The notes: generated by a model not told the origin, from the sequence alone. Positions 7,712-58,970 are shown, counted from the first letter of the stretch. The stretch is 64,000 nt of DNA from an uncultured Gammaproteobacteria bacterium (GCA_964576435.1 CAZNUP010000001.1:535551-599550), one strand, 5' to 3'. Numbers and translations are program-made.

Positions 7712-8039
7712 TTCTATCTCCCTTGTGTAATTCTCCCATTCCAGACTGAATAATTGCTGTATGTTTGTCTGCGCCCTCTTCATAAGCACGTTGTGCCTTT
7801 TTTCTATTTTTTTGGGCCAAATCGATCATGAACTGATTCTCCCAAGCTCCCTGTTCAGAGTCAAAAATCTTAATAGACACTAAGTATCTAATCCGGTCTT
7901 GAACCACATTAAGCTTTCCCTGGCCGTAATTAAACGACCTATTATCAATATTTTTAAGAGCTTCTAAGTGTCCGCTTGCTTTCAATTTATCGTACCAGCC
8001 TTTTATTTCAGGTGTCATAAGTGATTTATATGATATCAT
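7698..8039 (-). CDS. hypothetical protein (about 113 aa)
   Basis: ORF track runs to 8135, but the first internal Met (MISYKSL) at 8039 leaves the tRNA-like element intergenic. Confidence 0.35.
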   Translation of the reverse strand: MISYKSLMTPEIKGWYDKLKASGHLEALKNIDNRSFNYGQGKLNVVQDRIRYLVSIKIFDSEQGAWENQFMIDLAQKNRKKAQRAYEEGADKHTAIIQSGMGELHKGDRNESF

Positions 8040-8051
8040 AAAGCTAATCGA

Positions 8052-8126
8052 GGACTCGTAGTTCACCAGCAGAACGCTCGATTCACATTCGAGAGGTAGG
8101 AGGAGCGTCACCTCCCGGGTCCACCA
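8052..8126 (+). ncRNA. noncanonical tRNA-like element (anticodon CAC, discriminator A, encoded CCA)
   Basis: Perfect cloverleaf. Acceptor GGACTCG/CGGGTCC (one G-U). U8 A9. D stem GTTC/GAAC with loop ACCAGCA (no GG). Anticodon stem CTCGA/TCGAG with loop TTCACAT. T stem GGAGG/CCTCC with loop AGCGTCA (no TTC). Acceptor stem is identical to tRNA-Asp at 38926-38998. Confidence 0.4.
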
Positions 8127-8368
8127 TGGTACCATCAGAAATAGAAGGAAAATTATTAAACATGTTTCGCGATTACCAACTAGTCTTGGGTGGTGATTTC
8201 GAGATCAATAACCTTAATATGCGAACTCATTTAGAGGGAACTACGCTGAGAATGAAATATGAAGAAGTTGGCACTGAAATCTTACAGCAGTTGGGTGCTG
8301 TAAATTCGATTTTAAGCTTTTACGAGAAACATTCAAATGAAGACATTTCCCCAAAATATAGTATATGA
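8126..8368 (+). CDS. hypothetical protein (true start possibly at 8162)
   Basis: ORF; its first ATG overlaps the CCA end of the tRNA-like element. Confidence 0.3.
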   Translation: MVPSEIEGKLLNMFRDYQLVLGGDFEINNLNMRTHLEGTTLRMKYEEVGTEILQQLGAVNSILSFYEKHSNEDISPKYSI

Positions 8369-9119
8369 AGAATAAAAAAAAGGTTTTATTAATTGGAGCT
8401 TCAGGGGGAATTGGTCACGAAACTGCCAAAGTCCTTTTAGAAAGTGACTATAAAGTAATTGGCACTTATAACACTGATCAAAAAAAGTAATTGACCTTGA
8501 AAGAAACGAAAATTTTTCGGGAATGAAGTTAGATATTGGCAAAGTAGAGGAAATAAAGAAATTGCATTCTGGTCTAAAATCAGAGGACTTTTACGCGATT
8601 ATAAACTGCTCAGGTATGGTTGAATTCGAAGACAACAATATCGCAAATGATTTAGAAGTTTGGGACAACACCTTGGCAGTGAATCTTTCCAGCAACTTCT
8701 ATCTAGCTAAAATATTTTATCCAATTATTTCCAAAAACGGTCGGTTTATTATGATTAGTTCAACCGACGCTAATTACGGCGGAGCAATTACAGTGGCTTA
8801 CGCAGCAAGTAAAGCTGGTGTAAATTCTTTAACAAAATCTCTTTCTTTGTTGTTCAAAGACAAAATGATTAGGGTAAATTCCATTGCTCCAGGTTGGGTA
8901 AAAACTCCAATGATTGCTGACAATGGAGAAAAATTTATAAACGAAGTTGCAGGTATCAATCCTTTAAAAAGAAACGCAGATCCGATAGATATCTCAAGAG
9001 TTATTAAATTTCTATTGTCAGAACAATCAGATTATATTAATGGTCAGGTAATTACAGTCGATGGTGGCTATACAAATCAGGACCCAACACTTCTTCTAGA
9101 GGAACAAACAAAAGTTTAA
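8365..9119 (+). pseudogene. short-chain dehydrogenase/reductase, frameshifted in an A7 run
   Basis: N-terminal 41 codons (MKNKKKVLLIGASGGIGHETAK…TDQKK*) end at 8490. The catalytic part (…SSTDANYG…YAASKAG…NSIAPGWVKTPM) continues in the +1 frame from 8523. One extra A in aaaaaaa near 8478 would restore the reading frame. Confidence 0.7.
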
Positions 9120-9132
9120 TTTTTAATAATCT

Positions 9133-9684
9133 TTAATTCATCATTTTAAGAATCTTTTCAAGTAGTTGTGGAAGATCAAACCATCCTGCTGATCCATTTA
9201 AGTGTTGGCCATTTTCTATAACAACAAGCTTTCCATTTAATTCTCTTGCAGCCCGCTTAGCGTTTTCGATAGGCACATAAGGATCATTGTCGCCATGAAT
9301 AATGACAAATTCATTTGAGTTAGCTTTAATTTTCTTAAAATCAAAAGGTTTGCTAAAGAAATTAGCAATTTTCTTATTTTTATTTTCCTCAATTGGCCCC
9401 GAGACTAAAATTGCACCTGCAATTGGTTGCTTAGCCTCTTGAAGATATAAATAGATTGCAGATGCTCCAAGTGAATGTCCCACAAGATATATTTCATCAT
9501 TTTTATATCGATCGCAAAATCTCTTAATTTCCTTTACCCATTCCTCAGCTTTAGGTTCACTAGGTGTAGGCATTGACAATGAAAAGGCATAAGTTTTTCT
9601 TTTATCGAGTTCTACCATAAGCCAGGATTTCCAGCTACCATTTGGCTCACCCTCAAATCCATGAATAATAAAAACTTTTTTCAT
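9133..9684 (-). CDS. alpha/beta hydrolase, YdeN/RBBP9-like serine hydrolase
   Basis: Nucleophile elbow GHSLGA; size and order match the RBBP9/YdeN family. Confidence 0.65.
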   Translation of the reverse strand: MKKVFIIHGFEGEPNGSWKSWLMVELDKRKTYAFSLSMPTPSEPKAEEWVKEIKRFCDRYKNDEIYLVGHSLGASAIYLYLQEAKQPIAGAILVSGPIEENKNKKIANFFSKPFDFKKIKANSNEFVIIHGDNDPYVPIENAKRAARELNGKLVVIENGQHLNGSAGWFDLPQLLEKILKMMN

Positions 9685-10945: not shown

Positions 10946-13240
10946 TCAAAATTGTGTGGTCAATTTCTTTAAAACTCCTTTTAGAAGTTTAGTTTTAACA
11001 GGCTTCAGATCTTTTGTGCCGGTTGCATCATAGTGCCAACCTTTAATCTCAAAATCTCCATCTTTCATTGATTTAACTAATAAATCCTTTTGTTTTGTTT
11101 TTCCACCTTTAACAAACAAAACATTTGGATCGGGATTAACTGTCTCCTCGCCAACTTCTTTATTTGTTTGAATCTCAACATTTGGATCAGTCGAATAATA
11201 TAAATTTACTGACGCCGGCTCAGCGAAAGCAATCGGACCAATGAGAGAAAGTCCCAAGAATTGTAAAATATCAGCAACTGGTTGTTTCGAATTTAAATAT
11301 TCGATATGTTCAAGTTTGTAATTCTTATTAATTGCACCAGAAACATTAGAACTACTTGCTAAAACAGTCCCATCACCCACATCTTTTTTAGAAACTTTTG
11401 GGTCACCATCTATCCAAATTCCATTCGCTAAATCTTTTGGTTTAGTAGGTTTAACTGTTAATTCAGAATCAGTCGCTTTCGGTTTATTTCCAGATAAAGC
11501 CAGTGTTCTAGAAGAAAAGTCTAGTGAAAGTGGAAGATTAAATAGCACCGGGTTTTTCCCCACACTGGACAAAGAAGAATATGGTTTACCAACTATATAA
11601 TCATGTATTGGCATAAAATCATGTGCTCCGGGCATTCCAAGTTGGATCGCTTGTGTTTTGTTTCCTCCGCCATTTAGTCCAAAATAAAGTTCCGCACCAA
11701 ACTTTCCTAGTGGGTCTAGTGAAGAAAGATCTCCGCCCTCCCAAAACGCATAATCAGCTACTGCACCTTTATGTGGTGTTCCCGCTGTCACTATTTTGTT
11801 TATCTTGTCCTTACAAGTCGGAACTTGTTCAAAACAATATCTAGCAACTAGTCCTCCCATAGAATGTCCAACAATATCGACCTTTTGGCCAGGATTCTTA
11901 GTTAATACTTCATTATCTAGATATTCATTAAGCCAAGCACCAGAAACACCAATTGTCTTAGTAAAATCATAAGCAAAGAAAAAGACTTTGTCGTTTCTCA
12001 AGTAATTTAGTTTACCAAGTGCATTAAGGAATGGATTATAAATTGATGGGGCCTGGAACGGCATCATCGTCCAGTCACGATAGCTTGTCGGCTGATGTAA
12101 AAGAAGTCCCTTGGTAGAAAAACTTCCTCCAAAACCGGGAATAACTACAATTGGGTGAGGTCCAGGCACGGGTGTTGGACTAGGAGTTGGAGTTGGTGTT
12201 TGAGTGGGTGTTGGAGTTGGACTTGGAGTTGCAGAATTTGAGGCCACAAAAATTCCCAAACCTTCAACGCCTGCTACTACAATCCCATTTTTAGCATCAA
12301 TTCCCCAGGTATTGCGGTCTCCCCATGAGGGGTCTTGTACATTTTCCCAAGTTTCTCCAACGTTAGTTCCCTTCCAGATTCCACCATTTGGATTGGAAAA
12401 AATAACACTGGCATATAGGGTGTCGTCCAAATCTTGAGAAAGTCTGTAAACTTTACCTTTGGGTCCTCCCAATAACCATGTCCACGAAACACCATTGTCT
12501 ATAGATTTATAGACCCCCTCATCAGAGTCGAAATGAGCGGTATAAATAATTGAGCTATTAGTATTGTCAATAATGATGCTGTCACCAAAAGCTTTGCTTA
12601 GTGGTAGTACAGTCCAATTAAGTCCAAAATCATCGCTTTTATAAAAAGCAGGGTCAGTACCTATAAACAACCTATTCGTGTTTGATCTATCAAATTCAAT
12701 TTGAGCCACATTTGTATTTCCTATCTCAGTTACCTGGCTCCAATTATTTCCACCGTCAGTTGTCCTAAATACTCCTTGACTCCCAAGCATTCCGATATAA
12801 ATTACATCTTGGTTTGAAGGGTTAATTTCAATTGTCTTTGGTGTACCCGTGTTGTAAATTTTTTTCCAAGTAATCCCTCCATCATCAGTTAGATAAAATC
12901 CAGACCCCCAAAGCCCAATCACTATTAGTTTGGAGTTATTTGAAATATCAGATATCCATGTTATATCACCTGTATTAGGCAAGTTTCCCTTAATACTTGT
13001 CCAAGTTTGACCATTATCAGAACTTTTTAATAAGTCATATAATCCATTTTGATCTGCTGCGGCATAAACTGTGGAGTTAATAGATGAAGAAAATTTTATA
13101 AAACCAATCCTGCTCGTTAATACATTGTAAGTATTGTACCAAGTTAAGGGAGAAGCATTTGCAAATTTTGGAAGTATACTAAAGGTTGCAAATATTAAGA
13201 GAAAAAATAAATATGAACTTATTATTTTCTTAATTAGCAT
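10946..13240 (-). CDS. secreted fusion protein: BNR/Asp-box beta-propeller, Pro/Thr linker, LCAT/PGAP1-like lipase domain, C-terminal domain
   Basis: Signal peptide present. At least five SxDxGxTW Asp-box repeats (SSDNGQTWTS, TDDGGITWKK, TTDGGNNWSQ, SDDFGLNWTV, SIDNGVSWTW). PT-rich linker. Lipase elbow VDIVGHSMGGLVARY. Confidence 0.7.
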   Translation of the reverse strand: MLIKKIISSYLFFLLIFATFSILPKFANASPLTWYNTYNVLTSRIGFIKFSSSINSTVYAAADQNGLYDLLKSSDNGQTWTSIKGNLPNTGDITWISDISNNSKLIVIGLWGSGFYLTDDGGITWKKIYNTGTPKTIEINPSNQDVIYIGMLGSQGVFRTTDGGNNWSQVTEIGNTNVAQIEFDRSNTNRLFIGTDPAFYKSDDFGLNWTVLPLSKAFGDSIIIDNTNSSIIYTAHFDSDEGVYKSIDNGVSWTWLLGGPKGKVYRLSQDLDDTLYASVIFSNPNGGIWKGTNVGETWENVQDPSWGDRNTWGIDAKNGIVVAGVEGLGIFVASNSATPSPTPTPTQTPTPTPSPTPVPGPHPIVVIPGFGGSFSTKGLLLHQPTSYRDWTMMPFQAPSIYNPFLNALGKLNYLRNDKVFFFAYDFTKTIGVSGAWLNEYLDNEVLTKNPGQKVDIVGHSMGGLVARYCFEQVPTCKDKINKIVTAGTPHKGAVADYAFWEGGDLSSLDPLGKFGAELYFGLNGGGNKTQAIQLGMPGAHDFMPIHDYIVGKPYSSLSSVGKNPVLFNLPLSLDFSSRTLALSGNKPKATDSELTVKPTKPKDLANGIWIDGDPKVSKKDVGDGTVLASSSNVSGAINKNYKLEHIEYLNSKQPVADILQFLGLSLIGPIAFAEPASVNLYYSTDPNVEIQTNKEVGEETVNPDPNVLFVKGGKTKQKDLLVKSMKDGDFEIKGWHYDATGTKDLKPVKTKLLKGVLKKLTTQF
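12120..12245. repeat. low-complexity GTTGGAGTTGG-type DNA repeats encoding the Pro/Thr linker
   Basis: Tandem near-repeats ggtgttggactaggagttggagttggtgtttgagtgggtgttggagttgg. Confidence 0.5.
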
Positions 13241-48638: not shown

Positions 48639-51600
48639 ATGGCAAATTTTACCCATCTCCATGTCCACTCAGAGTACTCCTTACTTGATGGCTTATCTAA
48701 GATAAATAAGCTAGTAAACCGTGTCAAAGAACTAGAAATGTCTTCTGTTGCACTAACTGATCACGGTGTAATGTATGGTGCTGTTGAATTTTATAAAGCA
48801 GCTAAAAAAGCAGAAATAAAACCCATTATTGGAATGGAAGGATACGTAACTCCTGGCGATCATTTAAAAAAAGAAGGTAAAGAAGACAAAGTTAATAACC
48901 ATCTTGTTCTCCTCGCTAAAAACTACACTGGCTACAAAAATCTAATGAAACTAACTTCAATTGGGCACCTTGAAGGTTTCTACTATCGCCCAAGAGTTAG
49001 TAAAGAAATTTTGCGTCAGTATTCAGAAGGTTTAATTTGTTTATCAGCATGTCCCAAGGGTGAAATTGGGCAGCTTTTAATAGAGGGAGATTATGAAGAG
49101 GCTAAAAAACAAGCTACTTGGTATGCAGAGGTTTTTGGTGAAGGTAACTACTATTTAGAAATTCAACGCCACCAATATAAAGACTATTGGGATAAAGTAA
49201 CTGACCAAAAGTTAAAAGAAAAGCTCCAAACCATCCAAGTGTCAGAAGATAAATGGGTAGAAGGCACAGTTAAATTAAGTAGAGATCTAGGTTTACCTCT
49301 TGTTGCAACTAATGATTCCCACTATTTAAAACAAACCGATGCGATAGCCCAAGATGCTCTTGTGTGTATCTCAACCGGCAAAAATGTTTCTGATATTGAA
49401 AGGCTTCGCTATGTCGACACCCCCACCTTTCACCTAAGAAGCGAACAAGAAATGCAGGCTATTTTCCCAGAGTACCCAGAAGCGTTAGAAAATACAAAGA
49501 AAATTTCCGACATGACAGATGTTCAAATAGAACTTGGTAAATGGTATTTTCCAAAGTTTGAAATTCCAGACGGTAGTGATGCTGCAGATTTCCTAAGAAA
49601 AAAAGCCAATGAAAAAATTAAAGATCGCTACGACACAATAACCGAAGAACTTAAAAAGCGTCTGGATTTTGAATTAGATGTCATTATTCAAAAAGGATAC
49701 GCCCCATACTTTTTAATGATGGGGGATATGATTGCCTTTTGTGAAGAGCACGGCATTATTACAAACACAAGAGGCTCAGCAGCCGGTTCCTTGGTTTCCT
49801 ATTCACTAGGTATTACAACCGTTGATCCCATCAAATACTACCTGCCTTTTGAAAGGTTCCTAAACCCATTAAGACCTAAACCGCCGGATATTGATTTAGA
49901 TATTGCAGACGACAAAAGAGAAGAGCTTCTAAACTATATTAGAGAAAAGTATGGACAAGATAAAGTTGCTCAAATCTGTACTTTTGGAAGAATGTTAGCA
50001 AGGGGTGGGGTTCGTGATGTTGCAAGAGTTTTAGGTTATCCGTATGCAGTTGGGGACAAAATTTCCAAAATGATTCCCATGGGATCTCAGGGTTTTCCAA
50101 TGACCATCGAGAAGGCATTAGAGATAACACCTGAGCTTAAAGCTCAGTATGATTCTGATCCAGATACTAAAAAAATAATTGACCTAGCTAAAGAGATTGA
50201 AGGAAACGCCAGACACTCCTCAGTCCATGCCGCAGGAGTTGTGGTTTCACCAAATGTCATGACCGATTTCTCACCTCTGCAATTTGATCCAGATGGGGAA
50301 AAAATTATTACCCAATACGAAATGCACGCCTGTGAGGATGTTGGTCTAGTAAAATTCGACATACTTGGAATTAGAAACCTTTCTATTTTAGGAGCAGCTG
50401 TAGAAATTATTAAACAAACTCGTGGTGAAGACATTGATTTAAGAAAAATTCCTCAAGACGACGAAAAAACCTTCAAGATGCTAGCAGCCGGCGGAACCAT
50501 GGGCACTTTTCAACTTGGGGGAAGTGGCATGACCAAATGGCTTATGGAACTAAAGCCCACCCGAATTGAAGACATCATGGTTATGATTGCACTTTTTAGA
50601 CCAGGCCCCATGAATAATATCCAAGAGTTTATTGCAAGAAAACACGGCAAAGTTCCAGTCAAATATCTCCATCCAAAAATGGCAGACTTCTTAGATAAGT
50701 CATATGGAATTCTTGTTTATCAGGACGACATTCTTTTTATGGCACTTCAAATTGCAGGTTACGACTGGTCAACTGTTGATGCTCTAAGGCAAGCAATTGG
50801 TAAGAAAAAACCCAAAGAAATGGCCGAACAGCATGAGATTTTTGTTGAAGGTTGCATTAAGACTTCAGGCCTCACTAAAGAAGAAGCAGAAAAACTTTGG
50901 GACTTAACTGTTCCTTTCCAAGGTTACGGGTTTAATAAAGCTCACGCCGCTTCCTACGGAATAATTTCCTATCAAACTTCTTATATTAAAGCTCATTACC
51001 CGGTTGAATACATGTGTGCACTCTTGACGGCAGAGTCAGGTGACACCGATAAGATTGCTGAAGCAGTTGAGGAGTGTAAAAGAATGAAGATAAAAGTGTT
51101 AGCTCCCGACATAAACAAGTCTCATGTAGGTTTCACAATTGAAAATGATGAAAAGTCTCTGGATGGTAAAGCAATTAGATTTGGGTTATCAGCTATTAAA
51201 AATGTTGGCGAAGCAGCTATTAAAGCAATTCTTACTGTTAGAGATGTTGACGGACCATTTACCTCTTTAAGTAATTTCACTTCCCGGGTTGAGCTTCAAA
51301 AAGTAAACAAGAAAGTTTTGGAAAGTCTGATTAAAGCAGGTGCCTTAGATGCTTTTGGAAAGAAATCCTCAATGCTTCTGGGGATTGAAAAAATTATTTC
51401 CGATTCCCACAAAAAATCAAAGTCCGTAACAACTGGTCAAAATGGACTTTTTGATGGTGAAGATATGATGGAACCAGAGGCTCAAAGTTTTGATCTTTCA
51501 GATCTAGATGAATTACCAAAAGAACAGTTATTGGCATATGAATATGAACTACTAGGTTTCTATTTAACAGAGCACCCGGCAGCAAAGTTCTTGGAAGAAG

Positions 51601-51914
51601 TGAACGAAATGTCTACACACAACATCAGCGTACTTCTAGAAGATATCAGTAGTTATAACGGAAAAAATGTTACGGTGGGTGGACTAATTACAGGTATGCG
51701 TAAGATTTTTACTAAGAAAAATAACGATGAAATGGCTTTTGTTACAATTGAAAATAGCACAGGCACAAAGATGGAATGTGTCGTTTTTCCAAGAACCTTC
51801 ACCGACTACAAAGACTATTGGCAAACAAATAATGTAGTCTTAATTACCGGAAAAGTTGATACTAGGGAAGATAGAACTTCATTAATTGTCGAAAAGGCGA
51901 GAAAGATAAATTAG
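48639..51914 (+). CDS. dnaE: DNA polymerase III alpha subunit
   Basis: PHP start FTHLHVHSEYSLLDG, polymerase core, OB fold near the C-terminus; 1091 aa. Confidence 0.95.
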   Translation: MANFTHLHVHSEYSLLDGLSKINKLVNRVKELEMSSVALTDHGVMYGAVEFYKAAKKAEIKPIIGMEGYVTPGDHLKKEGKEDKVNNHLVLLAKNYTGYKNLMKLTSIGHLEGFYYRPRVSKEILRQYSEGLICLSACPKGEIGQLLIEGDYEEAKKQATWYAEVFGEGNYYLEIQRHQYKDYWDKVTDQKLKEKLQTIQVSEDKWVEGTVKLSRDLGLPLVATNDSHYLKQTDAIAQDALVCISTGKNVSDIERLRYVDTPTFHLRSEQEMQAIFPEYPEALENTKKISDMTDVQIELGKWYFPKFEIPDGSDAADFLRKKANEKIKDRYDTITEELKKRLDFELDVIIQKGYAPYFLMMGDMIAFCEEHGIITNTRGSAAGSLVSYSLGITTVDPIKYYLPFERFLNPLRPKPPDIDLDIADDKREELLNYIREKYGQDKVAQICTFGRMLARGGVRDVARVLGYPYAVGDKISKMIPMGSQGFPMTIEKALEITPELKAQYDSDPDTKKIIDLAKEIEGNARHSSVHAAGVVVSPNVMTDFSPLQFDPDGEKIITQYEMHACEDVGLVKFDILGIRNLSILGAAVEIIKQTRGEDIDLRKIPQDDEKTFKMLAAGGTMGTFQLGGSGMTKWLMELKPTRIEDIMVMIALFRPGPMNNIQEFIARKHGKVPVKYLHPKMADFLDKSYGILVYQDDILFMALQIAGYDWSTVDALRQAIGKKKPKEMAEQHEIFVEGCIKTSGLTKEEAEKLWDLTVPFQGYGFNKAHAASYGIISYQTSYIKAHYPVEYMCALLTAESGDTDKIAEAVEECKRMKIKVLAPDINKSHVGFTIENDEKSLDGKAIRFGLSAIKNVGEAAIKAILTVRDVDGPFTSLSNFTSRVELQKVNKKVLESLIKAGALDAFGKKSSMLLGIEKIISDSHKKSKSVTTGQNGLFDGEDMMEPEAQSFDLSDLDELPKEQLLAYEYELLGFYLTEHPAAKFLEEVNEMSTHNISVLLEDISSYNGKNVTVGGLITGMRKIFTKKNNDEMAFVTIENSTGTKMECVVFPRTFTDYKDYWQTNNVVLITGKVDTREDRTSLIVEKARKIN

Positions 51915-51961: not shown

Positions 51962-52258
51962 ATGGAAGTAGAAATTGAATGTCTTGATGGTGTAAAAGCC
52001 ACGGCAATTGTTACTGGGTTAGATTTCAATAAGCTAGAAGAGCAAAAGTTGAAACCTAATTCAACTTTACGGCTAAAATTTAATATAAAATTAGAAGTGC
52101 CTGTCGATTTTAAAGATACCCGTCAAGTTGAAATAAAATCTCAGACTGACGTGCCAGGAATGATTATCAAGGAAGCTCAGTCAGTACAAACTGACCATTG
52201 TACGCGAATATGCGGAGTTAACGGTGTTTGCCCACGCAACGGGAATAGAATCTACTAG
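51962..52258 (+). CDS. hypothetical protein (98 aa)
   Basis: ORF only. Confidence 0.3.
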   Translation: MEVEIECLDGVKATAIVTGLDFNKLEEQKLKPNSTLRLKFNIKLEVPVDFKDTRQVEIKSQTDVPGMIIKEAQSVQTDHCTRICGVNGVCPRNGNRIY

Positions 52259-52766: not shown

Positions 52767-52832
52767 GTGTAAAAAGAAGTGTAAAGAAAGTTTGGGAAAT
52801 TAAGTAACTTCCACTGATTATTCACATTCATG

Positions 52833-52905
52833 TGGGTCGACAGGGATTCGAACCCTGGACCAATTCCTTAAAAGGGAACTGCTCTACCAGCTGAGCTATC
52901 GACCC
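52833..52905 (-). tRNA. tRNA-Lys (anticodon TTT)
   Basis: Reverse complement is GGGTCGATAGCTCAGCTGGTAGAGCAGTTCCCTTTTAAGGAATTGGTCCAGGGTTCGAATCCCTGTCGACCCA. Confidence 0.9.
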
Positions 52906-52957
52906 CGAATAGCCTTATTTTATCTTTTTTGTTAAAATTGAGCAAGCTTGCTAATCA

Positions 52958-53029
52958 GGCGCCATCGTCTATCGGCTAGGACGGCAGATTTTCACTCTGC
53001 CAAGCGGGGTTCGACTCCCCGTGGCGTCA
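52958..53029 (+). tRNA. tRNA-Glu (anticodon TTC)
   Basis: GGCGCCATCGTCTATCGGCTAGGACGGCAGATTTTCACTCTGCCAAGCGGGGTTCGACTCCCCGTGGCGTCA. The D-arm resembles E. coli tRNA-Glu. Confidence 0.9.
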
Positions 53030-53034
53030 CACTT

Positions 53035-53107
53035 ATCTGGTGAAAAATCTAATAAATAAATCTTCACGAAATTCTCAGTTCAATAGTGTTTCACTATCAA
53101 CCGACAT
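53035..53107 (+). repeat. U-repeat copy A1 (~70-nt tRNA-Glu-3'-half-like direct repeat)
   Basis: ATCTGGTGAAAAATCTAATAAATAAATCTTCACGAAATTCTCAGTTCAATAGTGTTTCACTATCAACC; starts 5 nt after tRNA-Glu. Confidence 0.6.
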
Positions 53108-53178
53108 TTCAATGAGGTGAAAAAATAAACAACTAATACTTCACAAAATCTTCAGATTAAAGTGTTCGACTACCAATC
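53108..53178 (+). repeat. U-repeat copy A2
   Basis: …GAGGTGAAAAAATAAACAACTAATACTTCACAAAATCTTCAGATTAAAGTGTTCGACTACCAATC. Confidence 0.6.
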
Positions 53179-53204
53179 AAGGCAGATATGCTATTCTAAA
53201 TTAA

Positions 53205-53881
53205 TGTCCCAAAAAGGAAACATAATTGTGCCCATTTTAGTAATTGCACTTTTAATCTCATTAGGGTTAGCTGGTTATCTATTTTGGCAAAATCAACAAC
53301 TTCAAAATCAGACAACAAATATTGTTGACTCTCCAACAGTGACTCCTCAAACCAATATAAGTCCAATACCATCTATTTCAAATGAAACAGATAAGTGGGA
53401 CATACTTACAGGTACGGATTTAAAGATTTCGTTTAAGTATCCGAGCAACTGGTACACATTTCCAGGAGGAGATGTCAATCTGCCTCAGATCTTTGTACAA
53501 AATGTACCTCAATCCAATATAGGAACTGATGCACTACAAGAAGGGCAATTTAGCATGATTTTTTCAGATATTCCAAGTTATAAATTTAAAACAGTCGAAG
53601 AACTTGAGACTGAATTAGACAAAAAAGAAGGAACCGACGGATTTTACATTGGTGATTATGTAGGAAAAGTGAAAATAGAAAATAAACAGAAATTAAATAT
53701 AAACAACAATCCCGTCTTTGTCCAAACAATTACATATACTGAAAGACCCGACCTACATATAACAACCTACTACATTTTGGATGGAAATGGGAAAGTTACA
53801 AAATTGGAGACTATTGGTCAAAAGGCTGCTAACATAAATACTTTTAACAAAATTCTTCAATCCTTTAATTTTGAAAACTAG
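53205..53881 (+). CDS. hypothetical membrane-anchored extracellular protein (cassette gene 1)
   Basis: Probable start MSQKGN…; TM anchor with the GYLFWQNQQLQNQ motif shared with 60578-61297. The ORF track starts at 53162 inside the repeat. Confidence 0.45.
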
Positions 53882-53905
53882 CGTAGCTATATTGGTCTAT
53901 CCGAT

Positions 53906-53951
53906 AAATGTGCTCAAATATGTGTTCCATCTTTTGCCCAACCACCTCACC
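53906..53951 (+). repeat. D-element copy 1 (GTGTTC-core repeat)
   Basis: AAATGTGCTCAAATATGTGTTCCATCTTTTGCCCAACCACCTCACC directly abuts U-repeat B. Confidence 0.45.
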
Positions 53952-53954
53952 TTA

Positions 53955-54027
53955 ATCTGGTGAAAATAAATCACTAAATCTTCACGAAGCTCTTCAGATT
54001 GTAAGTGTTCGACTCCATTTCGTTCAC
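53955..54027 (+). repeat. U-repeat copy B (73 nt)
   Basis: ATCTGGTGAAAATAAATCACTAAATCTTCACGAAGCTCTTCAGATTGTAAGTGTTCGACTCCATTTCGTTCAC contains the exact 10-mer GTTCGACTCC of the tRNA-Glu T-arm. Confidence 0.6.
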
Positions 54028-54068
54028 AATATTTTGACAAACGTCTGTTCTTCTGTAAGAATTAACAT

Positions 54069-54551
54069 ATGGCATCAAAAAAGGGATCAAGTGGAACTTC
54101 CGAGGACACAAAGACAATTGTCACAGTTTTGCTTTTACTATTCGTTTTTCCATTAGGTTTAGTCTTAATGTGGTTTTGGACGAAATGGCCAAGCTGGATA
54201 AAACTTTTAATCTCTGTCCCTATCATCATTCTTGGATTTTTGTTTATTGTAGGGGTCTTCACCGTAGCGAATCAGCGCAGCTTGGATCAAAGCAGAATGG
54301 CAGACGTTCGGAAAATATCAGATGAGGCTGGGCATTATTGCTTTGAACACAACACATGCTTTCAGGGAAAATACGACAGTATGATGGAATTTATTAATCT
54401 GACCAATCTAGAATTAAATATTCCTTTATTGGATAAAGATTCTAACTATACATACGAATTAACTGACGGTGGAAAAAATTGCGTAATAAAATCCAAATTG
54501 TCCTCTGGGGAAGTATACTCAATAAATTGTATGAGATTTGCGCTTGACTAA
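54069..54551 (+). CDS. hypothetical small membrane protein with Cys-containing extracellular domain (cassette gene 2)
   Basis: Two TM helices. A TTGACA-N16-TAAGAAT promoter-like pair lies about 35 nt upstream. Confidence 0.45.
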   Translation: MASKKGSSGTSEDTKTIVTVLLLLFVFPLGLVLMWFWTKWPSWIKLLISVPIIILGFLFIVGVFTVANQRSLDQSRMADVRKISDEAGHYCFEHNTCFQGKYDSMMEFINLTNLELNIPLLDKDSNYTYELTDGGKNCVIKSKLSSGEVYSINCMRFALD

Positions 54552-54600
54552 AAAGAGCTCACTAGTGTTCTTGCTCATGAGGTGGCTGACACAAGAAGAT

Positions 54601-54657
54601 AAACGTGCTTCATATTCAAAGCTAGGTGTTCCGTCTTTTGCCCAACCACATCACAAA
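54601..54657 (+). repeat. D-element copy 2
   Basis: AAACGTGCTTCATATTCAAAGCTAGGTGTTCCGTCTTTTGCCCAACCACATCACAAA. Confidence 0.45.
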
Positions 54658-54791
54658 TTTCGTAAGGTTCACCGCAACCCCTTGGGGTGCGCTGAAAAGC
54701 CTGATAACACCTGCTAATTTATCTTTGATTTGTTCGATCGGGCTTTAGATCCTGTAATAGAGTGTTTTATCCTTAGAAGGAAAAAAATTTC

Positions 54792-55241
54792 CTAGTTTTT
54801 CTCAAGAAGTTTTTTAAGCTGATCAATAACTGCTTTCTCCCAATGTTTCATTGAATACCAACGTAGCAGTGGCACAGCAACTATTCGTAACCACTTTTTA
54901 TGAATAGTGACTTGATAGGTATAGTCAATTAATGTTCCCTCTGTACACTCAGAAAGTAATAGCTCCTCATGACCAGAAGTTCCAAACTGATAGCTGTCAT
55001 TGTCCGAGATAAAACCTTTTCCAGGTAGAATTTGTGTCTTCATTTTGACTTTAAATCTTCTACCGAAAGATCTTAAAGTAGCTTCCATTTCCAGATTGTT
55101 GCCCTCATGTTTTATTATCTGAACAGATTCGGCGACCATTGGAAAATTTTGGGGAAACTTTTCAAAATCGGTTATTATTTTGAATACCTCATCTATAGAA
55201 GCTTTAACAATCCATTGGCCGTGTAGTGCTATTTCATTCAT
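54792..55241 (-). CDS. SRPBCC (START/Bet v1/polyketide-cyclase-like) family protein
   Basis: About 150 aa; start MNEIALHGQWIVKASIDEVFKIITDFEKFPQNFP is typical of the SRPBCC N-terminal helix. Confidence 0.55.
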   Translation of the reverse strand: MNEIALHGQWIVKASIDEVFKIITDFEKFPQNFPMVAESVQIIKHEGNNLEMEATLRSFGRRFKVKMKTQILPGKGFISDNDSYQFGTSGHEELLLSECTEGTLIDYTYQVTIHKKWLRIVAVPLLRWYSMKHWEKAVIDQLKKLLEKN

Positions 55242-55422
55242 AAAATTTAATTGTTCTTAATGTTTATTTTCCATTTATATCGTAACATTATTGCTCACTC
55301 CGGAGTAGGTAACACGTTTGTTTTCCTAGTTGATTGGGTGGGTATGTAAGCTAAAATGGCTTTAGACCTATAACTACCTGAGGTAATACTCTCGTGGTGA
55401 GAATCCCATTGCCCTCACCCCT

Positions 55423-55490
55423 ATCTGGTGAAAATTTCACCAACAAATCTTCACAAAAATTTAAGCTCAAAAGTGTTCTTCTACCAAGCA
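55423..55490 (+). repeat. U-repeat copy C
   Basis: ATCTGGTGAAAATTTCACCAACAAATCTTCACAAAAATTTAAGCTCAAAAGTGTTCTTCTACCAAGC includes the 7-1-7 palindrome GGTGAAA-A-TTTCACC. Confidence 0.55.
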
Positions 55491-55665
55491 GAATAATTCC
55501 AGTGATATAATTTTATTATGGAAGCTAAACGGGGTACGATTTTTTTACCCTGGTGGCCTCTAAAGTTATAACTGGTGAGGATGAAACAATCCTGTTAGCT
55601 TAAGAAAGTTACAATCGAATAAGGATCTAAAAATTAAAAATTAGATAACTTGAAAGAGAATCAAA

Positions 55666-56376
55666 ATGAAAACAGCACTTATAACTGGAGCTAATAGGGG
55701 ATTAGGGCGAGGGTTTGTAGAATATTTTCTAAGTCAAGGTTTTATGGTTTTTGCCGGTGTTCGGGATAAAACAAAATTGCCTGAGGACTTTCCTAAAGAT
55801 GAAAGTTTAACAATTGTTCAACTGGATGTTTCAAGTGATCATTCAATTGAATCAGCATACCATGATGTGTCTTCTAAAGTTGACCATTTAGATTTTCTTG
55901 TTAATAATGCTGGACTAAATAAAGACTCAGCAACAAATGGCCATAATGAGCTGGTTAGTAATTTATCAGATCTAAAGAGACAAGAATTATTAGAAATGTT
56001 TAATGTTAATACTATTTCCCCTATTTTAATCGTAAAAAGATTCCTGCCATTACTTAGATTAAATCCTAGCTTTGTTATAAATATTTCTAGTTGCAGGTCT
56101 TCTACAAAAGACGAATTTCCTATCACTTCAGCAAATTATGGTTACAAAGCTAGTAAAGCAGCATTAAATATGATGACTTTGTGCAGTGTTTTGGATTTAC
56201 CCTCAAATATAAAAACATTTGCTGTTCACCCGGGAAGCGTCAAAACACATATGAATCCAAAAGGAGTTCAAACTCCGCGAGAACAAGTAGAAAAAATCAT
56301 AAAAATAGCAAATAATTGGGACGACAGTCTCAATGGTCACTTTCTTCGTTATGATGGGTCTCTTTACCCACTGTAA
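55666..56376 (+). CDS. short-chain dehydrogenase/reductase (cassette gene 4)
   Basis: TGANRGLGRG Rossmann motif, NNAG, YKASKAA active-site YxxxK. Confidence 0.8.
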   Translation: MKTALITGANRGLGRGFVEYFLSQGFMVFAGVRDKTKLPEDFPKDESLTIVQLDVSSDHSIESAYHDVSSKVDHLDFLVNNAGLNKDSATNGHNELVSNLSDLKRQELLEMFNVNTISPILIVKRFLPLLRLNPSFVINISSCRSSTKDEFPITSANYGYKASKAALNMMTLCSVLDLPSNIKTFAVHPGSVKTHMNPKGVQTPREQVEKIIKIANNWDDSLNGHFLRYDGSLYPL

Positions 56377-56380
56377 ACTT

Positions 56381-56437
56381 GAAATGTGTTCTTCATATTC
56401 TTGTATATGACTCCATTTTTACCTAACCATTTGCATT
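56381..56437 (+). repeat. D-element copy 3
   Basis: AAATGTGTTCTTCATATTCTTGTATATGACTCCATTTTTACCTAACCATTTGCATTT. Confidence 0.4.
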
Positions 56438-56605
56438 TAAAAAACGTAAGTTAATAGTTTAGAACTTTTAAAACAACAAGGCTTCAACTTAATTGGAATA
56501 CAATGAAACCCTAAATTATGTTGTTAGTCAAAAATTAGGACAAAAAATTCTCATAATCTTTAATTATCTCTATTAATTCTGGTTTTTATAGTGTATAGTA
56601 ATGAC

Positions 56606-56734
56606 ATGGCAAAAAGACCGACAAGAATTGGCAAAAGAGGCAAATCAAGATCTCATAAAACTAAAAAGAGATTGGAAATTAAACGCCTTATGCTTATCGA
56701 TAAAGCTTCAAGACGCCACAAGACAAAAAAATAA
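56606..56734 (+). CDS. possible small highly basic protein (42 aa)
   Basis: MAKRPTRIGKRGKSRSHKTKKRLEIKRLMLIDKASRRHKTKK. Below the ORF-track size cut-off; an overlapping 58-aa frame also exists. Confidence 0.2.
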   Translation: MAKRPTRIGKRGKSRSHKTKKRLEIKRLMLIDKASRRHKTKK

Positions 56735-56770: not shown

Positions 56771-57013
56771 CTAAACAAATTCTCTAAAGAGTTTGGGAAC
56801 TAGGTACTTTACTCCAATAAAGACAATTGGCATTACCCAAAGAATATATAGTTTTGGCCAAGGCATAACTAGAAATATTAGAACAAGGACCCAAAAAGAC
56901 GAACACTCCACAAGAAGTGTAGTGGGCAATGGCCTTCTAGTTAAGCACCCATAGGTAAGAAGTAAAGAACAAGTAAAAACTATTCCCCAAGAAATCCATC
57001 CTAAAATATCCAT
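56771..57013 (-). CDS. small membrane protein (80 aa, 2 TM helices)
   Basis: Hydrophobic ORF co-oriented with 57045-58088. Confidence 0.35.
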   Translation of the reverse strand: MDILGWISWGIVFTCSLLLTYGCLTRRPLPTTLLVECSSFWVLVLIFLVMPWPKLYILWVMPIVFIGVKYLVPKLFREFV

Positions 57014-57044: not shown

Positions 57045-58088
57045 TTAAACATCGTTGTATTGGCTAAGTATCACGTTTACTGCCTGAAGGGCAAGAACAT
57101 CGAAAACCAGTCCCACTAAAGCTCCAAATTGGTTAATCCAAAAAATAAAGAACTGCACAATGAAAATTGAAATGAAAAGGGAATACTTGACGTAAGTAAA
57201 GGCTTTCTTCCTCGACCTGTGGAATTCTAAGGCTCCTCCAATTGCCAGAATCCCTGCTAAAAATGAACTGATAATAACTGCACTGGTTGCAAAGTCTAAT
57301 TCTAAAATTATTCCGTGCTCAATAATTCTCGATAAAATCCCTGAATAGTACAAAATTACAAATAGTAAAAGAAAGAAACTAAAAATTGCTTGAATTTCTA
57401 TAAGTACAATCACCAAGATCTGGAATGGTCGTCTACAAACTAAATTATTAACAAAGTTGGTAACTGTGTTTCGAAGTTTAGTCATAATGGCAAAGGCCTC
57501 GTGCCTGTCGGTTTCTTTCTCTTTTGTAAATGCGTACAGACTAGAAAATTCAAAAGGATTTCCAGCTTTACTTAAATATTGAAGAGCTAATACTTTTTCA
57601 ATGTCACTTATTCCATGAACTAGTGAATTTCTAAAAATATCTAAAGCGTTCGATATGTATTCCTCTTTAGATATTTGCATGTGGTTTTTTAAAATGTGCA
57701 TAAGAAGGAATAGAAGAACAAAGAAAATATAAATTAACGCAACTGTGGGCCTAAAAAAATAATTATTGTCAGAAGTTATAAATTTTCCAAGTTCATCAAT
57801 AAATAGTCCAAATCCAACACCTCCAAGAACGGCACAAAACGCTTTAATCCTTCTGTCCATAAAAAGGAAAGTAAGAAGTAGACAAATTAAAAGAAATAAT
57901 CCACCCCAAAGCATGTGAGCAATATGAAGTCCTGATCCACCAATTTGTGGATAGCCACTAATTTTTAAAAAAAACCGGACCCCCAGGATTGTAACCACTG
58001 TGGCAATAAGAAAATTCTCAAAATAGTCAAATCCTGCCAGATCTTGAGTAAGTTTTATTTTTCGAAAAAATTCCTTAATCCCTTTCAT
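57045..58088 (-). CDS. polytopic membrane protein, function unknown
   Basis: At least 8 TM helices with a central soluble loop. Confidence 0.45.
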   Translation of the reverse strand: MKGIKEFFRKIKLTQDLAGFDYFENFLIATVVTILGVRFFLKISGYPQIGGSGLHIAHMLWGGLFLLICLLLTFLFMDRRIKAFCAVLGGVGFGLFIDELGKFITSDNNYFFRPTVALIYIFFVLLFLLMHILKNHMQISKEEYISNALDIFRNSLVHGISDIEKVLALQYLSKAGNPFEFSSLYAFTKEKETDRHEAFAIMTKLRNTVTNFVNNLVCRRPFQILVIVLIEIQAIFSFFLLLFVILYYSGILSRIIEHGIILELDFATSAVIISSFLAGILAIGGALEFHRSRKKAFTYVKYSLFISIFIVQFFIFWINQFGALVGLVFDVLALQAVNVILSQYNDV

Positions 58089-58106
58089 TCTGTTATATTA
58101 CACCAA

Positions 58107-58970
58107 ATGCCAAAAGATAAATTTAGTGCCACCTGGGTGTCCCATTCTTCAATAGCAGATTTTTTAGCTTGCCCCAGAGCTTACTATTTGAAAAATGTCT
58201 GGAAAAGGCCAGAGACAAAGCACAAAGTTCAAATTGTGACACCATCTCTTTCTTTGGGGTCAGCGGTTCACGAGGTAGTAGAGGCCTTGTCGGTTATCCC
58301 GACCGACAAAAGGTTTGTAGAACCCCTCCTTCCCAAGTTTGAAGCTGTCTGGAAAAGATATCAAGGCAGAGCTGGCGGTTTTTTTGATCCAGAAACCGAA
58401 GCTAAATACAAAACCAGAGGAATCAATATGATTAATAGGATAACAACACACCCCGGCCCTTTAAAAAACCTTGCAGTCAAAATCAACATGGACCTCCCGT
58501 CTTTCTGGCTATCGGAAGAGGAGAATATTATTCTTTGTGGGAAAGTGGATTGGCTTGAATACGATCAGGCAACCGATTCAGTGAGAATTATTGACTTCAA
58601 AACCAGTAAATCCGAGGAAAAAGATGATTCACTCCAGCTTCCTATCTATGTCCTGCTCGCCACAAATTGCCAAAACAAAAAAGTATCCGGTGCTGCCTAT
58701 TGGTATTTGGATTCTAATGAGGAAATTACTCCCAAAGAGTTACCAAACATAGAGGAAACCTTAGAAACGGTTAGAAGACATGCAAGAAGCATTAAAGTGG
58801 CAAGGGCACTAGATAAATTGACTTGTAAATCGAATGGCTGCAGAGCATGTACGCCGTTAGAGAAGATTTTCAAAAACGAAGCAGAATTCGTGGGTGTTAA
58901 TTCTTTTGGTCAAGACTGTTTTGTTGTTCAGGAAAATTCACTAAAAGAGGGCAGTGGAATAATTCTTTAA
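58107..58970 (+). CDS. PD-(D/E)XK nuclease, Cas4/RecB-like with four-Cys cluster
   Basis: N-terminal Cys in LACPRAYYLK. Motif II GKVDWLEYD. Motif III IIDFKTSK. QLPIYVLL. C-terminal CKSNGCRAC. Likely start is MPKDKF, not the 58044 ORF start that overlaps the divergent gene. Confidence 0.6.
   Translation: MPKDKFSATWVSHSSIADFLACPRAYYLKNVWKRPETKHKVQIVTPSLSLGSAVHEVVEALSVIPTDKRFVEPLLPKFEAVWKRYQGRAGGFFDPETEAKYKTRGINMINRITTHPGPLKNLAVKINMDLPSFWLSEEENIILCGKVDWLEYDQATDSVRIIDFKTSKSEEKDDSLQLPIYVLLATNCQNKKVSGAAYWYLDSNEEITPKELPNIEETLETVRRHARSIKVARALDKLTCKSNGCRACTPLEKIFKNEAEFVGVNSFGQDCFVVQENSLKEGSGIIL

Follow-up and report, generated by a model that had tools for sequence, protein, structure and literature searches.

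Single-gene modules stacked behind a tRNA-Glu gene of a Microgenomates (CPR) bacterium probably form a small genomic island

Repeats of tRNA ends are usually the work of tyrosine integrases. The SCC composite islands of staphylococci stand at the 3' end of rlmH (orfX) and are driven by large serine recombinases, and the pdif modules of Acinetobacter plasmids are gene modules bounded by XerC/D sites. It is well established that integrated elements, some of them without an integrase, accumulate in tandem at tRNA 3' ends (PMC5704250). The locus described here lies in a stretch of 64,000 nucleotides, which we call the window; the same strain has four public contigs, and all match it at 100% identity. 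The host is a Microgenomates/CPR bacterium with a small genome of 709 kb. Between tRNA-Glu(UUC) (52958–53030, + strand; ARAGORN; Rfam, 52.5 bits) and a conserved 347-aa membrane-protein gene (57045–58088, − strand; orthologues in the relatives L022 and L026), which forms the right border of a variable slot, four unrelated single genes stand in a row over ~4 kb with short repeats between them. Starting directly at the tRNA end, the order is U copy A1, U copy A2, gene1, D1 adjoining U copy B, gene2, D2 adjoining a spacer X, gene3 on the − strand, a decayed tRNA 3'-end copy (ψ3') adjoining U copy C, gene4, and D3. U is a ~75-nt repeat with four copies in the window, and D is a ~57-nt repeat with two clear copies, 3' of gene1 and gene2. 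The modules measure 0.8–1.6 kb with one gene each, and the base composition of the array region is not atypical. We consider this ~4 kb slot to be probably a small genomic island in which modules were inserted at the tRNA-Glu 3' end on several separate occasions. Genomic islands are known to form in this way, and the present one would be unusual in being so small and integrase-less.

The tRNA-Glu gene is 99–100% identical in the relatives L006, L021, L022, and L026, with a different sequence in each right after …GTCAC, and the slot from tRNA-Glu to the 347-aa gene holds different genes in every relative compared. Variability of the block next to tRNA-Glu, which a preliminary description of this DNA had proposed to look for, is therefore borne out. 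U also follows tRNA-Glu in two relatives, L021 and L026 (DnaE 85–87% identical), and it starts 4–5 nt past the tRNA end there as in the window. The single U of L021 is like A1 at its 5' end and like A2 at its 3' end, and an orthologue of gene1 (~66%, tblastx) comes after it. Since L021 has U and gene1 in the same position as the window does, that module at least has been vertically inherited for some time. On both sides of the slot, L026 and the window are colinear; 5.6 kb there stands in place of 4.0 kb here, and colinearity picks up again at window position 57013. The tRNA of L026 directly adjoins a U whose closest window copy is C (78%), followed by a 56-aa ORF on the opposite strand and a D that adjoins a terminator, and a second D-like element lies directly after def. 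U and D thus enclose other cargo in a second species, and the orientation of the cargo can differ. In L006 and L022 the tRNA is the same, and U and D are absent.

A distant genome, L028, carries a counterpart of the gene3 module. Within gene3 (54792–55241, − strand), which encodes an SRPBCC protein, the two genomes are 89% identical in nucleotides and 91% in amino acids, and the module as a whole is 86% identical over 621 nt. By contrast, their tRNA-Glu genes are only 72% identical, which is the level of relatives whose DnaE is 76–79% identical to the window's. Measured against this tRNA divergence, the similarity of gene3 points to lateral transfer of its module between distant genomes. In L028, tRNA-Glu is directly followed by X, a short patch, a DUF1697 gene, gene3, and ψ3', and the gene3 module thus lies between tRNA-Glu and a direct repeat of the tRNA's 3' end. 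The ψ3' of L028 (GATGGTTCGATTCCCGCTGCCCTCAC) matches the 3' end of its own tRNA-Glu (z 6.8, p<1/3000), sharing 14/14 of GGTTCGATTCCCGC plus TCAC. In the window, ψ3' (55393–55418, + strand; CGTGGTGAGAATCCCATTGCCCTCAC) forms the right end of the gene3 module directly upstream of U copy C and is 76% identical to the tRNA-Glu 3' end plus the start of U; compared alone with the tRNA 3' end it is not significant, and it is tRNA-like only through its L028 orthologue. The preliminary description had missed this element, the sole repeat traceable to a tRNA 3' end. Homology between the window and L028 ends exactly after its TCAC, at 55418. At the other side of the module, X (54655–54791, + strand) is homologous to the spacer right behind the L028 tRNA-Glu (global alignment z 4.5, p<1/5000) and is unrelated to U. 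It contains a GC-rich hairpin (54674–54690) and a 19-nt patch, TTTAGATCCTGTAATAGAG (54744–54762), and positions 54655–54762 correspond to X and the patch of L028. The block from U to D2 (53031–54654) stands in the window between the tRNA end and X, whereas L028 has the tRNA joined directly to X without it, so that the two genomes present a filled and an empty state of the same site.

The four U copies, all on the + strand, are A1 (53031–53107; nhmmer E 1.3e-17 and alignments), A2 (53108–53184; E 1e-15), B (53951–54027; E 6.9e-17), and C (55419–55492; E 1.4e-18). The four direct ~70-nt copies first reported behind tRNA-Glu do form one profile. Their mean column identity in the alignment is 75%, and the motif GGTGAAAA-N8-20-CTTCAC occurs four times in the window, always in the array, vs. 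0.01 expected. A profile built from the four window copies and two orthologous copies from relatives gives E values of 1e-15 to 1e-18 on its own six members, by construction. It found no further copies in ~150 kb that included the 64-kb window (next match E 0.48), and searches of GTDB species genomes and viral contigs gave no U. The six copies are roughly equidistant from one another (67–78%), and their invariant positions are grouped in three boxes, ATCTGGTGAAAA, CTTCAC.AA, and AAGTGTT, which suggests that the sequence is under constraint rather than in plain decay. A1 has no cargo gene, and its 3' end (…CCGACAT) stands where …GTCAC would be, ahead of A2. An exact 10-mer, GTTCGACTCC, is present in copy B as initially noted, but the accompanying claim that the 3' half of U tracks the 3' segment of tRNA-Glu was not confirmed. 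The likeness consists only of a T-loop-like 10–11-mer with shuffle p values of 0.006–0.2 per copy, it is absent from the L021 orthologue (p 0.18), and tRNA-Lys is a better match to copy B than tRNA-Glu is. The data do not demonstrate that U derives from a tRNA 3' end by decay; U is a conserved element in its own right and lies on the right-hand side of each junction.

D1 (53894–53950, + strand; nhmmer E 8.8e-14), ending …CCACCTCAC, and D2 (54598–54654, + strand; E 5.9e-14), ending …CCACATCAC, form the right ends of modules 1 and 2. They are 91% identical over 32 nt (pairwise z 17), and over 26 nt D1 shares 92% identity with the L026 D. Three shorter related elements had been described, and the relationship stands for D1 and D2, whereas D3 (56381–56437, + strand), a probable decayed D at the right end of module 4, is marginal: its pairwise tests against D1, D2, and the L026 D gave p values of 0.006–0.04, and the D profile search did not pick it up. 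D1–D3 show no similarity to tRNA-Glu (p 0.5–0.9). In the alignment with L028, D2 takes the position of the tRNA-Glu 3' end, and it adjoins X, not U. As far as these comparisons go, D is in the tRNA-end position but not demonstrably tRNA-derived.

At every boundary, a left half ending in TCAC, which is the tRNA end, D1, D2, or the decayed copy at 55393–55418, is directly followed by a right half, which is either U (3–4 nt, then ATCTGGTGAAAA…) or X. The first left half is the tRNA-Glu 3' end itself (…GGCGTCAC), on the attB/attL side. Judged by sequence, the tRNA-end position is otherwise occupied by D1, D2, and 55393–55418, among which only 55393–55418 is traceable to a tRNA. The pattern C.TCAC-N4-ATCTGGTGAAAA is common to copies B and C and to A1 behind the tRNA, and a TCAC(C)-N7-GGTGA inverted repeat spans each junction. 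The homology of D1 and D2 runs as far as TCAC, beyond which D1 leads into U and D2 into X. Where D1 meets copy B, the D–U junction is intact and matches the joint expected of a circularized module. The sequence common across junctions is short, comprising TCAC plus an ATCT-like stretch (roughly 10/14 nt).

The genes of the array are as they had been described. gene1 (53204–53881, + strand) encodes a membrane-anchored secreted protein and is an orphan, with no Pfam or PHROG match and only itself matched among 5.8 billion proteins; gene2 (54069–54551, + strand) encodes a 2-TM protein without a Pfam family; gene3 matches Polyketide_cyc/SRPBCC in Pfam; and gene4 (55666–56376, + strand) encodes a short-chain dehydrogenase (adh_short E 1.4e-29). 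Promoter-like sites are predicted ahead of gene1, gene2, and gene4: an extended −10-like TGnTATTCT (53189–53197) after U copy A2, TTGACA-17-AAGAAT (54034–54062) ahead of gene2, and TGATATAAT (55503–55511) after U copy C.

No recombinase was found in a Pfam scan of 56 window ORFs, which was not exhaustive, and no Phage_integrase or IntI was matched among them, in agreement with the earlier statement that the window has no integrase. Among the tested ORFs of L026 and L006–L027, the only recombinase was in L006, where a 562-aa integrase (PHROG 95 E 1.8e-20; Pfam Resolvase E 7.9e-5) abuts and overlaps tRNA-Glu. It is a large serine integrase at the same tRNA-Glu, in a genome without U or D. A serine recombinase gene beside the attachment junction was therefore seen only in L006 and not among the scanned window ORFs.

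The insertion reading is supported by the variable slot, the empty and filled states in L028 and the window, the tRNA-end repeat of L028, and the L006 integrase at the same tRNA, together with the confinement of the repeats to this locus, the regular make-up of the junctions, and a gene3 module shared between distant genomes. Under this model, modules in circular form, bearing an attP-like joint of the D–U type, would recombine with a site in which the tRNA end is followed by X or U, so that newcomers would enter beside the tRNA and older modules would be pushed outward. The joints would be made by a site-specific recombinase acting in trans, for which U and D may be binding or arm regions, and today the modules probably either persist as immobile remnants or are mobilized only in trans. 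Serial insertion with older junction copies displaced downstream had been proposed from the start; this core idea is supported by the relatives, but U as a decayed tRNA end is not. Several observations count against the insertion reading: the lack of a recombinase in the scanned ORFs, a D not traceable to the tRNA, the short shared junction sequence, modules far smaller than usual integrative elements, a composition that is not atypical, and the vertical retention of U and gene1 in L021.

Because the modules carry single unrelated genes of 0.8–1.6 kb, two of them orphans, with D–U composites between genes, integron-like cassette capture has to be weighed. The tRNA-Glu end would be the recipient, U/D (a D+U composite of ~130 nt) would be the cassette sites, and one recombinase encoded elsewhere would shuffle single genes. 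The different cargo between U and D in L026 and the second D-like element after def would also fit. However, the D+U composites form no attC-like hairpin (DNA fold z −0.6 to −1.7), the candidate cores read from the sequence (GTTCGAC, GTTCCAT, GTTCTTC) are not GTTRRRY/RYYYAAC, the modules have their own promoter-like sites, gene3 is inverted with other ends (X and ψ3'), the scanned window ORFs yielded no IntI-like gene, and the arrays are short, with four modules here and one or two in L026. We therefore regard cassette capture as distinctly unlikely, and the integron-like alternative of the preliminary description fails on the missing attC-like hairpin and GTTRRRY core and on the promoter-like site of each cassette. 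A broader version, in which this Microgenomates (CPR) clade has its own gene-cassette system with single genes, U on the left and D on the right, stacked at the tRNA-Glu 3' end, is unlikely too, though not to the same degree. If true, it would be a functional analogue of the integron, with the recombinase encoded elsewhere, the tRNA end taking the role of attI, non-hairpin sites of conserved sequence that of attC, and cassettes exchanged between lineages.

U and D could instead be cis-regulatory signals, with U as an upstream operator or activator and D as a 3' stability or termination element, spread by local copying alongside ordinary gene gain and loss. In the window, a promoter-like extended −10 does follow each U at a distance of 30–55 nt, U and its gene point in the same direction, the three boxes of U have GTGA/TCAC half-sites at roughly one-turn spacing, and D follows the stop codons of the + strand genes gene1 and gene2 and of def in L026. 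Yet the next feature after the U of L026 is the 3' end of an oppositely oriented ORF, so that this U drives no adjacent gene, A1 has no gene, D lacks a conserved hairpin or T-run, and all four sites are confined to 2.4 kb of 64 kb. This explanation also does not account for the divergence of D1 and D2 exactly after TCAC, the end of L028 homology at the same point, or the U-to-D2 block between the tRNA end and X, and we rate it as improbable as cassette capture. The constant position of TCAC, at the end of every D and 3–4 nt ahead of every U, recalls transposase-less derivatives of a single-strand transposon of the IS200/IS605 type. Such elements insert 3' of a fixed tetranucleotide, which here would be TCAC, and have it at their own end as well, and can therefore stack. 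Three of the six U copies (C and those of L026 and L021) have a near-terminal palindrome, GGTGAAA-N-TTTCACC, but A1, A2, and B do not keep it, D has no convincing hairpin, no TnpA/TnpB was seen among the ORFs scanned, the copies occupy one locus in 64 kb, and the L028 tRNA-end direct repeat is left unexplained, making such an origin very improbable. Least credible of all is that the U copies are transcribed together with tRNA-Glu as small RNA genes or tRNA pseudogenes, although U begins 4–5 nt after the tRNA and a T-loop-like GTTCGACT(C/A)CC is present in A2 and B. An Rfam scan including the tRNA model gave only two true tRNAs at E≤10 and no U match, nine of ten strand-specific RNA folds of U had z scores of −1.3 to +1.1 (the exception being the A1 minus strand, z −3.2) with no fold common to the copies, and the tRNA likeness is marginal and absent from the L021 orthologue. 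U as a tRNA pseudogene or known structured RNA was rejected on this covariance-model and folding evidence.

Returning to the insertion reading, the array can be set beside the systems it most resembles. Like an integron (IntI, attI, attC), it stacks unrelated single-gene units, often orphans, at one fixed site, with conserved non-coding elements between units and the newest presumably closest to the site. By contrast, no IntI was found here, U and D are sequence-conserved rather than hairpin-forming and lack a GTTRRRY core, and whereas integron cassettes are mostly promoterless and co-oriented, these units have their own promoter-like sites and one is inverted with different ends. The pdif modules are similarly small, lack their own recombinase, and are bounded by short sites of conserved sequence whose core is an inverted repeat (here TCACC-N7-GGTGA), with a host recombinase as the presumed mover; here, however, no dif-like 11-6-11 site was recognized, the array is chromosomal and tRNA-linked, and the sites are direct rather than alternating. 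SCC islands share the stacking at a conserved gene's 3' end, the short direct repeats between units, and recombinase-less units (pseudo-SCC) in the array, and L006 has a large serine integrase at the same tRNA-Glu. They differ in that the target here is a tRNA, the scanned window ORFs include no recombinase, and L006 has no U or D. Accretion at tRNA ends as described for ICEs, IMEs, and CIMEs (PMC5704250) involves elements of several to tens of kb with mobilization genes, unlike the 0.8–1.6 kb, one-gene modules here. The host here is a Microgenomates/CPR bacterium, no integrase was identified among the 56 window ORFs scanned, and the repeated junction is mostly element-side (U and D), with ~4–10 nt visibly common with the tRNA. 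Still, as in CIMEs, no element has an integrase of its own, so that any movement would have to occur in trans, and the array stands at a tRNA 3' end, includes a module with a distal direct repeat of the tRNA end (the gene3 module, clear in L028), varies among relatives with an empty site, and places its elements head to tail with internal att-like junctions.

The region 3' of tRNA-Glu (52958-53030, plus strand) is built around a ~75-nt repeat, U, present as copies A1 (53031-53107), A2 (53108-53184), B (53951-54027) and C (55419-55492). Four matches to GGTGAAAA-N8-20-CTTCAC lie in the 64 kb (53039, 53116, 53959 and 55427) against a chance expectation of 0.01, and the aligned copies have a mean column identity of 75%, bearing out the preliminary description of four direct copies of a ~70-nt element. 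A profile built from these copies and two orthologous ones from relatives necessarily recovered those six (E 1e-15 to 1e-18) and found no further copy in ~150 kb of the window and related loci (next match E 0.48). Three shorter elements had also been proposed. D1 (53894-53950, after gene1, an anchored secreted protein) and D2 (54598-54654, after gene2, a 2-TM protein) are as solid as U, with 91% identity over 32 nt (pairwise z 17; profile E ~1e-13), but D3 (56381-56437, after gene4, an SDR) is marginal, with pairwise p of 0.006-0.04 and no match to the D profile. Within and between genomes, U copies are about equally distant (67-78%) and their invariant positions fall into three boxes, a pattern that would fit binding sites under constraint. 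No foreign base composition was detected in the region.

Copies A1, B and C are each directly preceded by C.TCAC plus 4 nt, reading GGCGTCAC-ACTT-ATCTGG at the tRNA end, CACCTCAC-CTTA-ATCTGG at the end of D1 and GCCCTCAC-CCCT-ATCTGG at 55411-55428; A2 has a decayed version, CCGACAT-TTCA-ATGAGG. Homology between D1 and D2 likewise runs to TCAC and then gives way, D1 continuing into U(B) and D2 into a spacer, X (54655-54791). The region therefore consists of TCAC-ending left halves (the tRNA end, D and 55393-55418, here ψ3'), each continuing into a right half that is either U or X. With slashes for junctions, the array reads tRNA/A1·A2-gene1-D1/B-gene2-D2/X-gene3(-)-ψ3'/C-gene4-D3/…, gene3 being an SRPBCC gene on the minus strand. 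A short inverted repeat, TCAC(C)-N7-GGTGA, spans every junction with U on its right, and the junction core was not found at the right border of the variable slot.

The main comparison was with another contig, L028, which carries a relative of gene3 at least 90% identical. In blastn, L028 9824-10442 aligned to window 55418-54800 at 86% identity and stopped exactly at the TCAC before U(C). The minus strand of L028 reads tRNA-Glu, then a spacer of 91 nt and a patch of 19 nt, a DUF1697 gene, gene3 and GATGGTTCGATTCCCGCTGCCCTCAC, the last being a direct repeat of its own tRNA-Glu 3' end (GGTTCGATTCCCGC, 14/14, plus TCAC; z 6.8, p<1/3000). Window 55393-55418 is the decayed orthologue of this repeat, and the window copy alone is not significantly tRNA-like. 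The spacer and patch of L028 show homology to X over 54655-54762 (z 4.5, p<1/5000) and are unrelated to U, and in the alignment of the two loci D2 takes the place of the tRNA end. Because L028 reads tRNA/X where the window reads tRNA/U…D2/X, a 1.6-kb block (53031-54654) fills exactly the interval from the tRNA end to X. The two tRNA-Glu genes are only 72% identical, the distance also seen for L007 and L025, relatives with DnaE identities of 76-79% to the window. Yet the gene3 products are 91% identical (89% in nucleotides), which suggests that the gene3 module was laterally transferred.

We also compared the locus with contigs whose DnaE is 75-87% identical to that of the window. The window host belongs to the Microgenomates (CPR), and the named, more distant matches to its DnaE (48639-51914) were Gottesmanbacteria, Microgenomates and other Patescibacteria; same-strain contigs were identical to the window. 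Synteny is kept through dnaE and rplS and resumes at a 347-aa membrane-protein gene (57045-58088) in L022 and L026. The genes between the rplS/tRNA side and this gene differ in every genome compared, answering in the affirmative whether the DNA next to tRNA-Glu is variable. In L006, L021, L022 and L026 the tRNA-Glu genes are 99-100% identical, and the downstream DNA is different from the first base beyond …GTCAC onward. L021 has a single U after the tRNA, followed by an orthologue of gene1; a homologue search with gene1 returned only gene1 itself. In L026, which forms one assembly (GCA_034680565.1) with L005, tRNA and U are followed by a 56-aa ORF in opposite orientation, a D that matches D1 at 92% over 26 nt, a hairpin terminator, def and a second D-like element (E 0.007; minus strand ~12379-12427, reverse-strand 1151-1199). 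This second element immediately follows the stop codon of the peptide deformylase gene (def), inside the slot.

Both U and D are missing from L006 and L022. In L006, a 562-aa ORF (7921-9609, minus strand) adjoins and overlaps the 3' end of tRNA-Glu, its frame running 39 nt into the tRNA gene, and encodes a large serine-type integrase (PHROG 95, E 1.8e-20; Pfam Resolvase, E 7.9e-5). In this clade, therefore, one or more integrating elements use tRNA-Glu as an attachment site. The integrase has a relative of at least 90% identity, P0247, on a 21-kb contig; similarity of the integrase region to D was at chance level. No recombinase was found among the 56 window ORFs scanned, consistent with the earlier statement that the window holds no integrase, and viral contigs scanned for U, D, the tRNA-Glu 3' end and the L006 integrase yielded nothing.

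The local gene order in the window is dnaE, a 98-aa ORF (51962-52258), rplS (L19), tRNA-Lys (52832-52905, minus strand), tRNA-Glu and the repeat region. The 98-aa ORF had no Pfam or PHROG match and is missing at that position in L005, L006 and L022. In six relatives (L005, L006, L021, L022, L007 and L025) tRNA-Lys lies on the tRNA-Glu strand, just upstream of tRNA-Glu; thus, a ~110-nt segment with tRNA-Lys and its -10-like box appears to have been inverted in the window lineage. A perfect 12-nt palindrome, AGCAAGCTTGCT (52941-52952), lies between the two tRNAs. The SDR gene has a ~154-nt leader (55503-55665) from a perfect extended -10 (TGATATAAT) to the start codon, with no Rfam family match. 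Between D3 and the 347-aa gene are a very basic 47-aa ORF (56591-56734, plus strand) and an 80-aa membrane-like ORF (56771-57013, minus strand), neither with a family match. A PD-(D/E)XK (Cas4-like) nuclease gene (58044-58970) is divergent from the 347-aa gene, overlapping it by 45 nt at their starts; L026 has a counterpart (75% by tblastx), which is missing at that position in L022. The gene descriptions offered earlier were accurate.

The simplest account of the array would be that very small modules without an integrase were inserted one after another at the 3' end of tRNA-Glu. A plausible order of arrivals would begin with tRNA/U(C)-gene4-D3, an arrangement like that of L026, where the U next to the tRNA is most similar to copy C (78%); X-gene3-ψ3' would then have arrived, followed by the U-gene1-D and U-gene2-D modules. 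In the preliminary description, the repeat resembled a decayed tRNA-Glu 3' end, a likeness that we could not support beyond a T-loop-like 10-mer: in A2 and B the best local alignment covered only GTTCGACT(C/A)CC, the shuffle test gave p of 0.006-0.2 per copy (0.18 for the L021 orthologue), and copy B scored higher against tRNA-Lys than against tRNA-Glu. D copies showed no similarity to tRNA-Glu, the U profile matched neither tRNA nor D, and at E<=10 the Rfam tRNA model matched nothing beyond the two genuine tRNAs. Nine of 10 strand-specific folds of U had z of -1.3 to +1.1 (the exception, the A1 minus strand, had -3.2), and the copies share no common fold. On these Rfam and folding results we discarded both a structured RNA and a tRNA pseudogene as explanations of U. 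A small-RNA or tRNA-pseudogene origin is a minor possibility, as is an IS200/IS605-like one. A derivation of D from the 3' half of U was dropped since only one pair was suggestive (B vs. D3, p 0.0025) and the profile search gave nothing. Cognate direct repeats around each gene (U box 3 vs. D start) appeared only for C/D3 and B/D3 (p ~0.002 among 12 comparisons) and were not relied on.

A dedicated integron-like cassette system is possible, but membership tests did not place the locus among integrons; an attC-like hairpin formed by D and U together was rejected on folding (z -0.6 to -1.7). U and D could instead be regulatory, as promoter-like sites lie 30-55 nt downstream of U in the window. 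However, in L026, another species, U and D bracket other cargo in either orientation, which speaks against U and D being no more than promoter or terminator elements, and regulation would leave the exact breakpoints after TCAC unexplained. The preliminary observation thus largely holds, apart from the likeness of U to tRNA-Glu and the marginal D3. Its interpretation as serial insertion at tRNA-Glu stands in outline but not in every detail, U being no tRNA-like piece and the array no integron.

A GTDB species-genome scan with the U pattern gave four matches in unrelated phyla, judged random (the source genome lies outside that set). A ~180-nt repeat in metagenome Ga0197142 (L013 6504-6683; L014 120-284 and 1665-1821; L015 7297-7468; L017 985-1156; L019 1656-1787) has copies 91-97% alike, which end in inverted repeats of 18 nt and form a strong hairpin (z -3.1 to -3.7). 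Within the repeat, GGGGTTCAATACCCC matches the T arm of the tRNA-Glu of the same organism at 13/15 positions and is followed by ATCTGGTGAAAAA…CTTCAC…AGTGTTTTTCTATC, an element order colinear with the 3' end of the window tRNA-Glu and the U behind it. In L014, the two copies flank a two-gene module; others lie 44 nt after a tRNA-Leu and 620 nt after tRNA-Glu, and the host does not look CPR-like. This repeat is possibly related to U, but the homology is uncertain and was not used as evidence because the pattern that found it also gave the four random matches.

Genomes of CPR/Patescibacteria are very small, and to our knowledge little is known of how they gain accessory genes. This locus is a tRNA-linked hot spot where genes come singly, each with conserved ends, and the gene3 module is common to lineages with markedly diverged tRNA-Glu genes. 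If a trans-acting recombinase were tied to the U/D ends, the locus would define a minimal cassette-type route of gene acquisition in CPR and provide sequence profiles for spotting such cassettes in metagenomes; if none were, it would be a clear but ordinary case of an island growing by accretion beside a tRNA gene. Integrated elements are known to accrete at tRNA genes (PMC5704250), and this locus represents a new variant of that process, in miniature, in bacteria where such processes are poorly documented.
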